Assembly: GCF_018977255.1 (NCBI RefSeq)
Contig: NW_024704742.1
Span: forward strand, 8,372,001-8,436,000
Direction of reading: 5' to 3'
DNA: 64,000 nt
Source: Callorhinchus milii
Taxonomy: Eukaryota
Shown: piece by piece, positions 47,336 to 53,290 of the stretch
Layout: each line of letters opens with the position of its first letter
How positions within the stretch are numbered: position 1 is the stretch's first letter
Program-made: the position numbers and the translations under genes
Notes under the pieces: model-generated
The model's database searches: none
The model's input: only the letters and a program-made list of their open reading frames with translations
What the model was told of the DNA's origin: nothing

Positions 47336-47357
47336 ATGGCACAGATTTCCAGACCAG
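47336..47357 (+). CDS. APOL-like gene 3, start exon MAQISRP(G); exon 47294-47357
   Basis: ttcttcatttccaaAG acceptor; acaATGG Kozak context; CCAG|GTAATT donor; phase 1. Confidence 0.8.
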
Positions 47358-48139
47358 GTAATTAAACTATTGGAATCGATGAAAATATTGTATTAACTTC
47401 TATTCCAATCCTGTGCCCACTGCGAGTCAGGTAACAAGCTCCTGCTGTCTTCTCAGGGCTGAGCTGGCTCTAAGGTGAGGTTCCTGGCATCGGAATGTCA
47501 GAATCGAACCAGCCCTCCATGACCGTCTCTCATCTAGTTCTTGAGCCAGGCGGGTCCACAGTACTCCAGGACCCTGCTGATGATGGCACAATCATCGGCA
47601 GGAGTTGGAAGGGCAGAACAGTCACTGGACAAAGACTCTTCCCACTCAGCTCCTGTTAACCCTGGAAGCCAAAGCTCTAATGGGAAATGTGGTCCAAGGC
47701 GGACAAGCAGTGGGAAAGCTTGTCAGATAGAGCTCTCAATGGCAAGCTATGCGGTTTTAGCTGGTTAGACTCCAGCAATTACCCCAACACACAATCTGGG
47801 GTCCCTAAACCTTGGCCCTTGCCAGCCTGTACTCTCTGGATTTAGATAAGCAGGGGTTGTCCTTCTAGGTAGAGGGAAAGAGCACATTCTAGACACAGGG
47901 TAAATTCCAGGTGAAGGTGACATGCAGACGTGGAACTCAGTCTGGTTTGGATACTCAGGAGCACGATGTTGGGTTTCCACAAGAATCAGACACCCACTCA
48001 CCAAAAATAAATTTACTGTGAACGGTGAGGATATTCCCTCTTGTGTGGTCACTGTATCAGCCAGGATTGTGTCTGTTCACTCTGTTAATACCAGATAATA
48101 ACCAATAATAATGGCTCTTGTTTCTCCCTTGTTTAACAG

Positions 48140-48164
48140 ACATAGTCAATGTAACCGAGGACAG
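48140..48164 (+). CDS. APOL-like gene 3, microexon 1 (D)IVNVTED(R)
   Basis: tttctcccttgtttaacAG|...GACAG|GTACGT. Confidence 0.82.
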
Positions 48165-48579
48165 GTACGTACAGATGTGAGGCAGCTGCTGAATAAACTG
48201 TCTGATGTGTGTGTGTTTGTGTGTGTGTGCGCGTGTGTGTGTTAGTGTGTGTGTGTGAGCGTTTGTGTGTGACTCACATTACCGGAGACACGGGAAGGAA
48301 TGTTGTCACATGTAATATGTGGGAATAAGTGAGAACTACATAAGACCACGAGAACATTAGAAACGCTAGATGAAAAAAAGACCAATGTCCATCTAGTTCG
48401 CCTTCAACCTTCCTAGCAGTCGCATGCAAATATGTACCAAACTATCTAATCTTGCTTTTCCAGCGTGAACATGCCCAATAGGCACTCCTCAAGTGGTTCA
48501 GATCCTACCCCTCACAACGTCTCCACTTCTTCTCCACAATTTCTCCTCTAGCCCCCGCACCATCTCATAAGGAGTTACT

Positions 48580-49640
48580 CAGGTCTCTGTCTTTGTCCGC
48601 CTCCTCTTCAATATCTATATGCTCCCTCTTAGTGACATCATCCCCAGACATGGGGTCAACTTCCACATGTATGTGGATGACACCCAACTCTACCTCTCTG
48701 CCTCCATCCTTGACTCCAGGACCACTGCTGTGCTGACAGAATGTCTGTCAGACATCAAGTTTGGATGAGAGCTAATTTTCTTCAGTTGAAAGTCAACAAG
48801 AATGAAGCTCTCCTGATTAGCTCCTGTCAATGCCTCAACACCTTAGGCGCTGACAGCACCACTATCCATGGATGCACACTCCACCTTAATAAGCCAGTCT
48901 GGTGCCCTGGTGTCTTGTTTGACCCTCAAGTGTACTTTCTACCCCACATCCATGCCATGACCTGCTCTGCCTTCCCCCATCTCTGTAACATTGCCCGGCT
49001 CTGCCACTGTCTCACACCACAGGCCGCCGAAACCCACATACTCGCATTCATAACATCCAAGCTTGACTATTCAAAGTCCCTCCTTGTCAGCTTCCCCAAC
49101 TCCTGCCTCCATAATCTGCAGATCATCCAGAACGCTGCAGCCCGTGTCCTCTCCTGCACCATCCTCTGTGACCCTTTCACCCCCAACCTCGCCCGACTCC
49201 AATGGCATCTCATCACACAAAGGATACAGCTCAAGATCCTGTTTTTCACCTTCAAAGCCCTTCATGGCCTTGCGCCCCCCTACCTCTGAGACCTCCTTAC
49301 CATATACCAACCTGCTCGCTCCCTCTGCTTAGTGGGCTCTGGCCTGCTTCACTTCCCTCGCCTCGCCCACCCAACCATTGACAGGTGAGCCTTCAGTCAC
49401 TCTGACCCCGCCCTCTGAAATTCCATTTTGCAGTCCCTCTACCTCGCCCCCTTCCTTGCCTCCTTCAAGATCCATCTCAAGACCGTCTTCTTCAACCATG
49501 CTTTCGATCACCATGCTTCCCCTCTGCCCTCCAGCCTCCCCAATCCCGACCCCCAGCTCAGGTCCGAAAAACTGATTGTCCAGCGCCTTGGGATGTCCTC
49601 ACCATGTGAAAGGCACTATATAAATGTAATTTTGTTGTTC
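48580..49640 (+). mobile_element. L2 LINE 3' part
   Basis: FHMYVDDTQLY, WMRANFLQLK.NK.E and LDYSKSLL motifs; L2 tail. Confidence 0.88.
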
Positions 49641-49828
49641 TCATAGTCCAGTGAGTCCCTCCATTTCCCCAACCATTCTGGTTGCCCTCCTCTGTATCCT
49701 CTCAATTTCTCCCATATCTTTTTGTACTTCGGTGACCAGAACTGCACACAGTATACTCTAAGTATAGTCTCACCAACAATTTATACAGTGGCAGGATTAC
49801 ACCACTACTTCAGCTTGCTATTGATCTT

Positions 49829-50189: not shown

Positions 50190-50365
50190 CCTTTTGATAC
50201 ATTCTAACATCTGGTTTGATCTACTCATAACCACAGAGCATTGTTGCGAGAGCTTCGATTTATTATCAGTATCCCAATTAATTTCTAAAATCACCAATTA
50301 CGATCGTTGGTCCCTTACTGGTCACCTTCCTTATCTCTTCCTTATACACTTGTTTGTCCTAACAG

Positions 50366-50994
50366 GAAAGCGTTTGAAGCTGAAGTTAAACAGAGGAAGC
50401 AGGATGTGAAGGATTTTGTCACCTTGTTCCCTGTGTGGAGAGTGTGGATGATCAGCTACATCAGAGACCTACGAGAGATCGCATACGATATATACTCGAT
50501 TCACAAACCAGGCACGAGAGTGGGAGTCGGCCAGAGTGTGGCTGGTGGGGCTGACAACACTGCAGCTTGTGACACGGACATTGTTACCCAAACACAGAGA
50601 CGCAAAAGGGTTAATGATATCATTGAGCAATATACAAAGGACAGCAGAGAAATGGCAGAGTGTTACATGAAACTCTCACGAGCAGTTCGGATCTTGAAAC
50701 GTTATGGTAAGAAATCAGAAACCACATTTCCTGGTGGAGCTGAGAGTCTCACTGAACACTTGGCTGGATTTGCTGCTGTGGCTGAAACAATAAGCAAACA
50801 GGAGACAGTGACATCCAAGGCCGGGTCAGCAGCTCAGACAAGGCTGCCTTTCATATTGTCTCTGATCTCCAGAGCAAACAATGTTAATCTCAACCGTGGA
50901 GCCAGGGCAGATATTGCTAAACACATTCATGGTGTGGCTGAAGTGCTGGAGGATGAAGTGATGGCGTATAAAGAGGTTTATAAACATCTGGAAG
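50366..50994 (+). CDS. APOL-like gene 3, A-type domain exon (read-through stop at 51074)
   Basis: tgtcctaacAG|G AAA GCG TTT; homology to 5902 and 19476 begins at the acceptor and ends at GAAG|GTACAG. Confidence 0.8.
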
Positions 50995-52460
50995 GTACAG
51001 CAACTATTTCAATGTACAGCACAGCTGAGGCAGGGTTCAGTGATGTAATATTCATGGTGGGTGCAGGAAGATAGCAGAGTACATCTGACCAAAATAAATC
51101 TTCTTATGTGTGTGCAGAAGAGAAGGGATTGCACTTTACATGTGAGGGGAGAGAAACCGTTCGTTTGAAAGTATTCTCAACTCTAACTCAGAACTTTGTG
51201 GATTGAGCTCCACATCAGGACTTTGAGTTCATCATCCGGGTTTGAAACTCGAGAGCAGCGCAGGGTTGGGGAGAGCACTGCAATGTCGGATGTGCTACCT
51301 TTTAGTTGAGACATTAAACCGAGGTCTATCTGTGCCATGTTCAGGTGGATGTTTAAATTCCACTGGCACTGTTTGAAAAGGCAAAGAATTTCTCAGGGTC
51401 AGGAAAACAATGCCCCAGAAAAAATTAGTTATTCACTTGTGGGATATTGCTGTGAACAAATTGGTAGCCACTTTTGCCTACAAAATGCACAGTCAATACA
51501 CTTTACAGTAAATCCTGTGTGTTCGTGTGTGTGTGTGTGTGTGTGGGGAGAGATGTGTAACACTGTAGCATTAGGAGGAGAGAAGTGACTGGGTAGAAAT
51601 TCCTGCCTTGGGGCTAAATTTTTTCTCTTAACACAGAAATTCTGAGTGCTCACAATTTGTCAAATTCTTAATCCCGGGCTTTAATTTTGAAGCTGGGTTT
51701 CCAGCGGTTTGGGACATCCTCCTGATGTGAAAGGCACAATACAAATATCATTTATTGTTCTTGTTGCTATAAGTTATTTTAAGAACTGAAAAAATGGGCT
51801 TCAAAGTTAGAACCAACTTCAACAATTTGCCAAATTCTGCACACTCTGAAAGAATAATAATAATCCTTGCTTTTGATATAGTGCCTTATCAAGTCATTCA
51901 AACAACAACAATTTGCATTTATATAGAGCTCTTCACCCCGCACGGCATCTCGGAGTGTTTAACAGTGGCGGAGCCCGATTGGTGGATCGCTTCACAGGAT
52001 ATATTATAAAGTGGATTGACTGTGTTTTTATGGGCAAAACGTGCACACAAAATGCACACAGCAGTGAGCCACAAATAGTCGTGGATTGAGCGACCAATCA
52101 AATTACAACCGGGTTCCTACTTACTGCGAGGTAAACACGTGTGTGGAATAAGGAAACTTGTAAAGTAAATTCGGGTGAAACTCCTGCACAATATCATCAA
52201 TGCTGAGTGTTCCCCACTCGCGGCTCCTGTGTGACCCACTGTGTTTGTCAGGAAAGAAGCCAAACCTTGACAGCAGTAGAGCTGCCACATTGCTGCTCTG
52301 CTCCTGTCGCTGCCAAGGGGAGAACGCTTTGTTTACCCGCGAGTGGTGAGGACATTCCCTCCTGTGTGGTCACTGTATCAGTCAGGATTGTGTCTGTTCT
52401 CTCTGTTGGTACCAGATAATAACCAGTGATAATGGCTCCTGTTTCTCCCTTGTTCAACAG

Positions 52461-52485
52461 ATACAGTCAGTGACAACGAGTACAG
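52461..52485 (+). CDS. APOL-like gene 3, microexon 2 (D)TVSDNEY(R)
   Basis: tttctcccttgttcaacAG|ATACAGTCAGTGACAACGAGTACAG|GTACGT; flanks homologous to 48140. Confidence 0.82.
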
Positions 52486-52590
52486 GTACGTACAGATGTG
52501 AGGCAGCTGCTGAATACACTGCCGGATATTGTGAATGAATCACTTGTTGTCACATGGCTCTGTCTGATTGGCTTTTTATCTCATTAACAG

Positions 52591-53290
52591 GAAAGAGAAC
52601 AAAGTTGTTCTGGAAAAGATAATTGAAACTTTTGAAAACTATTTCCCGGTCTGGAGAGAATGGATGAGAGGACACGTGAGAGGATTGCGAGAGATTGCAG
52701 ACGACATCGTCAATTATCCCAAACAAGACCCCACAGTGAATATTACTGTGTGTAGTAGAGTGCAACTCTCCATTACAGCAATAATTATTGCCCCTTTCTC
52801 ACTGAGCACGAGGTTGGTGCTTGTGGCCCTGGGAGGCAGGAAGGGTGTAGCTGAGGATGATGTGACTAGACACATGGGTGTGGCACAGACAGACAAACTG
52901 AAAAGAGTTCATAGAATCATAGAACGTTATAAAAAGGACAGCAGAGAAATGTCAGGTCTATTGATGAAGCTCTACAGTGCGAAACTGTTCTTTAATGATG
53001 AAATATTAAGAGAAGGTGCATTGAGTCTTGTCTTTGAGATATTCCCCAAGCACTGGCGTGCTTTTCCCACAGTTATCTCAGCAGCGACCAAACTGATGAT
53101 AGTAATGTTCAGGGCTGCGACAGGAGGGCTGTCAGGACTCTGTAATGTCTACTCTGGAGCAAACAATTTCTCTCCCTTTAACCTTAACAAGACAGGAGTT
53201 GCTAAGCAGATACGAGAAGCGGCTGATATGATGGAGGATGAGATACGAGCATGTGAAGAGGTTTATAAACGTTTTCAAAAGAAAAATTAA
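52591..53290 (+). CDS. APOL-like gene 3, D-type terminal exon
   Basis: tctcattaacAG|G AAA GAG; FPVWREWMRGHVRGLREIADDI..APFSLS..AKQIREAADMMEDEI; AATAAA at 53330-53335. Confidence 0.82.

Follow-up and report, generated by a model that had tools for sequence, protein, structure and literature searches.

The stretch of DNA analysed here, referred to as the window, comprises 64,000 nucleotides (nt) of Callorhinchus milii reference DNA, and all coordinates are window positions. It holds a cluster of apolipoprotein L (APOL)-like exons, and five exons between 47336 and 53290 probably make up one transcribed gene of this cluster, encoding a protein of about 466 residues that consists of two APOL-homologous modules, A and D, in series (Table 1). 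The exons are 22, 25, 629, 25 and 700 nt long and sum to 1401 nt, as computed by a script on the window sequence. Each internal border has the form AG|exon|GT, and the joined frame comprises 466 codons with the terminal TAA as its sole stop. The five positions, the GT-AG borders, the phases, the total length and the single open frame had been put forward in an earlier sequence-only reading of this DNA, and all of them were reproduced. The acceptors of the gene have good pyrimidine tracts. The donor of the A exon, AAG|GTACAG, had been described as only a moderate match, and this is correct in that it fits the consensus at positions -3 to +3 only.

The 3' end of the A exon was examined by comparison with the two other A exons of the window, A1 and A2. 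DNA similarity to them spans 50360-51000 only (92 and 91% identity) and therefore ends 6 nt past the donor GAAG|GTACAG in both comparisons, as abruptly as had been claimed. Past these 6 nt no similarity to the A1 and A2 tails remains in the read-through tail, and the tails differ between units. A second ATG exon had not been seen between 50994 and 52461 in the same reading, and none was found there: the exon-1 region matches only itself and, weakly, 14841-14871. A degenerate exon-1 pattern has two sites in the window, 14844 and 47332, compared with 0 expected by chance, both of them outside this interval. A degenerate microexon pattern has four (8373, 20880, 48140 and 52461), again with 0 expected. 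Homologues of exon 1 are the one further ATG exon of the window, 14848-14869, and the N-terminal ends of the paralogues modelled in RefSeq. No signal-peptide-like N-terminus was detected in the 466-residue protein, so that the protein is probably intracellular.

Transcript evidence for the joining of the A exon, the second microexon and the D exon was sought in four (X1, X4, X5 and X6) of the 12 sequencing runs listed, in the form of assembled contigs and not of reads. X1 is labelled RNA only as a guess, X4, X5 and X6 are DNA-like, and contig depths are poor measures throughout. X1 contains a fraction of 0.45 of the sampled words of 50366-53290, and exons make up 0.46 of the same stretch. One X1 contig of 706 letters, with a mean word depth of 389.8, carries the end of an A exon, the microexon and the D exon in series. 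Its first 20 letters are the A side and end at 50994. They are followed by 21 letters which, together with 4 letters placed on 52587-52590, equal 52461-52485 with three changes, and the remainder is D exon reaching 53251. The changes in the microexon, at 52462, 52476 and 52481, are the only letters present at these positions in the DNA-like runs X4-X6. No contig with the A-microexon-D joint was found in X4, X5 or X6, although these runs cover the introns at a depth of about 5-20; a DNA retrocopy can therefore not account for the joint in those animals.

Over 52587-53251 the same contig differs from the window at 12 of 665 letters. Six of the differences are synonymous and six non-synonymous, and no stop is introduced. 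Seven of the 12 recur in X5, and at six X5 is without the reference letter, which fits an allele better than a paralogue. Contigs of X1 also lie on 50638-50994 of the A exon. The junction 50994 -> 52461 -> 52591, for which the sequence-only reading had asked for spanning transcripts, is thus supported by an RNA-like contig and by the same junction in RefSeq paralogue models.

Both modules were compared with the Pfam ApoL family (PF05461), for which two hits per protein had been expected. With a cut-off of 25.9 bits, module A scores marginally above it (26.2 bits) and module D below it (18.0 bits). A phmmer search with module A found shark proteins named apolipoprotein L3-like with E-values of 2.9e-13 to 4.4e-11. 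Its relatives at E <= 0.001 are only 20 among 1.84 billion representatives; four of these are at least 73% identical and all from C. milii, and the next are apolipoprotein L3-like or L5-like proteins of sharks and rays at 25-33% identity. Residues 10-230 of module D align end to end with the sawshark apolipoprotein L3-like protein P0007 (BLASTP, E-value 2e-15), and on Pfam ApoL the shark proteins P0007 and P0009 reach 130 and 140 bits, respectively. The 30 Atlas clusters nearest to module D are without exception ApoL, the best with a score of 0.92 and 201 of 256 shared features. Judged from its sequence, module D is read here as a divergent member of the APOL family. The large exons of A and D share about 33-37% protein identity, and module D is about 32% identical to the C modules, the second type of downstream module in the window. 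A profile built from 18 sequences (the A, C and D modules and shark APOLs) matches the structures of APOL2 (7lf8_A, E-value 3.8e-4) and APOL1 (7l6k_A, E-value 0.014); the match covers positions 6-48, corresponding to helices 4-5 of the solved N-terminal domain, and applies at the level of the family, not to each module.

In the review PMC11726835, a hydrophobic double-stranded hairpin with transmembrane potential is called 'the major characteristic of APOLs'. Module A has an alignment gap of about 40 columns where the C modules, module D and the ordinary ApoL exon of the window (38136-39140) have this hairpin. Hydropathy was calculated according to Kyte-Doolittle with a 19-residue window and a threshold of 1.6. 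The maximum is 1.00 in all three A modules, none of which has a window of 1.6 or more. Module D has a hydrophobic segment at residues 59-82 with a hydropathy of 1.94, and the maxima are 2.83-2.84 in the C modules and 1.91 in the canonical ApoL exon. The predicted module A is thus without the hairpin of about 40 residues that module D and ordinary APOLs retain, and so would not be a second pore-former.

An AlphaFold model of module A, with a predicted local distance difference test (pLDDT) score of 70.6, is made up of four long helices, and residues 46-73, at the site of the hairpin, form a disordered loop. At the sequence level, a C-terminal block with an invariant A and an invariant Y is aligned across all seven modules of the window, and it forms helix 177-208 in the model. 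Module A retains in this way the helices that flank the hairpin as well as the C-terminal amphipathic helix. A Foldseek search of the module A model against the PDB gave no match at E <= 0.001, the weaker rows being generic helical bundles, and in an Atlas structure search with module D all template modelling (TM) scores were below 0.5. A full-length fold of the paralogue P0001, based on a six-sequence alignment, was too poor to place the modules relative to each other (pLDDT 44.3, predicted TM score 0.38). The gene had been described earlier as a covalently linked APOL heterodimer. Two APOL-homologous modules do lie in tandem in one gene, but a pair of two membrane-lytic effectors is not supported, with module A devoid of the hairpin.

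Further evidence comes from RefSeq models of C. milii paralogues, namely LOC103187865 (XP_042194007.1, 485 residues), LOC103191485 (XP_042192701.1, 445 residues) and LOC121849673 (443 residues). All three lie on the same chromosome of 139.2 Mb and are named 'uncharacterized protein'. LOC103187865 has the same plan as the present gene: an ATG exon, a microexon, a hairpin-less A module, a second microexon and a second APOL module. The models of LOC103191485 and LOC121849673 have their start within module A and agree with this plan in the A-microexon-C portion. The junction after the A module is the same in the paralogue models and in this gene, and the A modules of the paralogues share 77-90% identity with the A modules found in the window. 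The difference lies in the second module, which is of type C in the paralogues, with two to three strongly hydrophobic segments and only 29-35% identity to module D. The tandem architecture is also found in an older accession, XP_007905742.1.

Several observations weigh against the five-exon gene. The junction evidence is one contig from one run whose RNA status is guessed, and the A side of its joint, 20 letters, is shorter than the 31 letters set as the rule for joints. All three A exons of the window have these 20 letters in common; the contig therefore shows that an A-type exon is joined to D, not which A exon it is. The depth of X1 is 0 over 47200-47410 (exon 1) and 2.45 over 48044-48254 (exon 2), so that the first two junctions are taken only from homology with the RefSeq paralogues. 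Its exon plan, with these two junctions predicted, places the gene in the C. milii subfamily in which an A module is followed by a second module (LOC103187865 type). Another X1 contig, covering 52316-52516, shows 7 differences, and a close paralogue may thus exist. The Pfam score of module D, below the cut-off, is to be counted here as well. In the DNA-like runs X4 and X5, T is the sole letter at 47358, a G>T change of the first base of the exon-1 donor, and X6 has G; some haplotypes may consequently lack this donor. The reference form of the second microexon (52461-52485) is not seen in X4-X6. The ratio of non-synonymous to synonymous substitution rates (dN/dS) between the A paralogues is 0.56-0.86, which fits either a fast-evolving immune family or weak constraint. 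Finally, an unspliced X1 contig on 51055-51597, with a depth of 47.3, runs past the AATAAA at 51093, and P0006, a UniProt model of a paralogue, is the read-through form. An A-only isoform is therefore likely to coexist with the spliced one, probably as a minor, unspliced form that ends at the read-through stop.

Two side observations concern polymorphism at the locus. The exon-1 changes at 47342 (Q>E) and 47352 (R>K) travel together with the G>T at 47358. The D exon and the second microexon are highly polymorphic, half of the differences by which the expressed haplotype departs from the reference (12 of 665 letters) being non-synonymous.

The unspliced contig raises the question whether the locus makes two products, with A-only and D-only mRNAs as the main forms and the fused mRNA as a minor conjoined transcript. 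The A-only form would comprise exons 1-2-3 with read-through as far as the stop at 51072-51074 and polyadenylation downstream of the AATAAA at 51093, consistent with this contig, with the motif itself and with the paralogue read-through model P0006. The D-only form would be produced by splicing exon 1 directly to the second microexon and D, a combination of 747 nt that is in frame, and only a single run is informative. We nevertheless consider such an arrangement unlikely, because the junction contig runs unbroken from the 20 A letters to the microexon and D, although the assembly should presumably have broken at the start of the microexon if a second upstream partner were used. The depth of the junction contig (389.8) also exceeds that of the intron contig (47.3), poor measures as contig depths are, the read-through tail is not conserved among the A paralogues, and the intron contig extends 500 nt beyond the AATAAA.

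Still less likely is a decaying or non-functional locus, i.e. a dying but transcribed member of a fast-turnover cluster whose frame is left over from a recent duplication. The frame of 466 codons is open over five exons, and the 12 differences of the expressed haplotype add no stop. Module D, divergent as it is (about 32% identity to the C modules), aligns end to end with shark APOLs; it is old and still alignable over its whole length, and so has been open for a long time. The flanks of the microexons are conserved, and the word depth of the X1 contig is high. Decay would on the other hand agree with the donor-destroying G>T at 47358 in two of the three DNA-like runs, the dN/dS between the A paralogues, the score of D under the Pfam cut-off and the lack of a recognisable exon-2 microexon upstream of the A exons in window units 1 and 2. 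It would agree too with the database searches, in which the D module brought back no protein and the A module none of more than 366 residues. An artefact, whether a de Bruijn chimera, a misplaced contig or a retrocopy or paralogue elsewhere, is hardly credible: the A side of 20 letters, the use of contigs and not reads and the 12 + 3 differences from the window would permit it, but the joint falls exactly on the predicted GT/AG borders of two introns with the 25-nt microexon included, does not occur in the three DNA-like runs with cover of this region, has homologous junctions in independent RefSeq paralogue models, and belongs to a contig whose differences recur as sole letters in the DNA-like X5.

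The five-exon tandem gene was set against what is known of APOLs in other species and in the databases. Its nearest relatives outside C. milii are P0007 from Pristiophorus japonicus, P0008 and P0027 from Chiloscyllium and P0009 from Heptranchias perlo. These apolipoprotein L3-like shark and ray proteins consist of a single module of 250-340 residues with the hairpin present, and are 25-33% identical to A and D. The ordinary ApoL exon 38136-39140 belongs to the same cluster and has the hairpin, but is a single module with neither an A-type partner nor an adjoining microexon. Human APOL1 and APOL3 resemble the present gene in the homologous helical modules that flank the hairpin (PMC11726835; see also PMC7090385). 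They are single-module proteins of separate genes, each with a hairpin, whereas here two modules are found in one chain, one of them hairpin-less. PMC11726835 further describes human APOL1 and APOL3 as intracellular, membrane-active and innate-immune, and reports that the zipper-like C-terminal helix of APOLs pairs with N-terminal helices, either within one chain (LZ1-LZ2) or between two APOLs.

The gene had been called hidden and its architecture not described. No protein carrying its D module was returned among near-length and longer proteins, a weak piece of evidence in view of the shared-word filter of the search, and no protein of more than 366 residues carrying its A module was returned when A was searched against longer proteins only. 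Five module-A matches exceed 400 residues; as judged by eye, four carry a single APOL region preceded by unrelated N-terminal sequence, and the fifth is a simple repeat. The tandem form is absent from these five, and no survey of all ApoL proteins for two-module forms was made. A literature search, with subscription journals and supplements outside its reach, found no paper on C. milii APOL genes or two-module APOLs. One candidate source, PMC6854765, was discarded since it deals with exchangeable apolipoproteins and not with APOL. Both claims therefore hold only in part, the architecture being already present in RefSeq for the paralogues as uncharacterised proteins; nobody seems to have described it. 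The tandem architecture has so far been seen in one species only.

The positions of the exons and of the other APOL-type features of the window are collected in Table 1. The window contains seven large exons of APOL type, i.e. three A, two C, one D and one ordinary ApoL exon, and all large exons start in an ACAG|GAAA context.

Table 1. Features of the five-exon gene and of the APOL-like cluster around it (window positions)
Feature	Position	Strand	Remarks
Exon 1	47336..47357	+	ATG + 7 codons + 1 base; donor CAG|GTAATT
Exon 2	48140..48164	+	25-nt microexon, phase 1 to 2; one of 4 window copies
Exon 3	50366..50994	+	Module A, 209 codons, APOL-homologous, no hydrophobic hairpin in the predicted protein; donor GAAG|GTACAG
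Read-through tail	50995..51074	+	26 further codons, then stop (51072-51074); intron 3 if spliced
AATAAA	51093..51098	+	19 nt past read-through stop; candidate alternative poly(A) signal for A-only isoform
Exon 4	52461..52485	+	Second 25-nt microexon, paralogue of exon 2
Exon 5	52591..53290	+	Module D, 232 codons + stop; APOL-homologous, keeps hydrophobic hairpin
AATAAA	53330..53335	+	40 nt past stop; likely poly(A) signal, from the motif only
Hairpin-less A exons	5885-6601, 19459-20175, 50366-50994
C exons	11292-12125, 24335-25117
Ordinary single-module ApoL exon	38136-39140		Pfam 77.2 bits; lies between tandem units
25-nt microexon copies	8373, 20880, 48140, 52461 (starts)
ATG exons	14848 and 47336

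Two further tandem units appear to be present upstream. Across the homologous junctions, A1-microexon-C1 (5902-12125) is open for 486 codons and A2-microexon-C2 (19476-25117) for 469 codons; the sequence-only reading had named the junctions 6533->8373 and 20107->20880. A pattern scan of the window found no exon-2-type microexon upstream of A1 or A2. The only ATG exon nearby, 14848-14869, does not have the phase needed for direct splicing to A2.

The flanks of the two microexons of the gene, 48024-48206 and 52345-52527, are 89% identical over 183 nt. The intron flanks of the 25-nt microexons, those at 8327-8413 and 20834-20920 included, are conserved at 86-89%, far above the rest of the introns. 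This conservation suggests splicing control elements or gene conversion.

One RefSeq model in the cluster, XP_042194130.1 (LOC121849696, 307 residues), matches A1 (5984-6535) and the start of A2 (19471-19692) at 100%. Its middle piece matches the start of C1 (11296-11403) at 83%, in a tblastn frame that apparently differs from that of the C open reading frame (ORF). It looks like a chimeric model in which the microexon has been skipped. Elsewhere in the window, ORF fragments that by eye are retroelement-like, of reverse-transcriptase/endonuclease type, occur at 648-1064, 2206-2775, 15306-16080 and 62121-62642. Long simple-repeat ORFs, named proline/serine-rich by eye, lie at 13659-14760, 43419-44446 and 55374-56674, and a run of N is found at 14417-14441.

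The tandem gene probably goes back to an ancestor with a single large exon preceded by an ATG exon and a 25-nt microexon. Either this large exon and its microexon would have been duplicated together inside the gene, or a neighbouring downstream gene would have lost the exon carrying its ATG. The upstream large exon would then no longer have been terminal, its stop being replaced by the donor GAAG|GTACAG, which would sit where single-module relatives continue for a few codons to their stop. Loss of the hairpin from A would have come later, with selection or gene conversion acting on the microexon flanks.

By analogy with human APOLs, module D may tentatively be proposed as the membrane-inserting part of an intracellular innate-immune effector, with module A as a docked, soluble regulator of APOL type. 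A would dock on D via the zipper-like helices and, as long as no trigger is received, keep D closed or modulate its partners. Such docking would be analogous to LZ1-LZ2 within APOL1 and to the APOL1-APOL3 interaction, as these are presented in PMC11726835. A broader proposal, put forward with similar reserve, is that chimaeras have a small family of single-chain APOL pairs in which a hairpin-less module guards the pore-forming module fused to it. Such a guard could work either as an autoinhibitor that a trigger releases or as a decoy for pathogen factors directed against the zipper helices of APOLs.

For annotation, the analysis flags a gap, as no returned protein carries the D module, and in addition XP_042194130.1 as an apparently chimeric RefSeq model of this cluster. 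The inactivation of APOLs and the control of one APOL by another are an open topic because of APOL1 kidney disease, and a natural chain of a hairpin-less and a hairpin-bearing APOL offers a defined pair for probing regulation via the flanking helices. If the guard proposal is true, the chain would be a natural covalent version of a partnership of the APOL1-APOL3 type, and at this locus the same guard would be combined with a further effector module, the second and very divergent D. The tandem genes also mean that APOL diversification through internal duplication predates or parallels the mammalian expansions.

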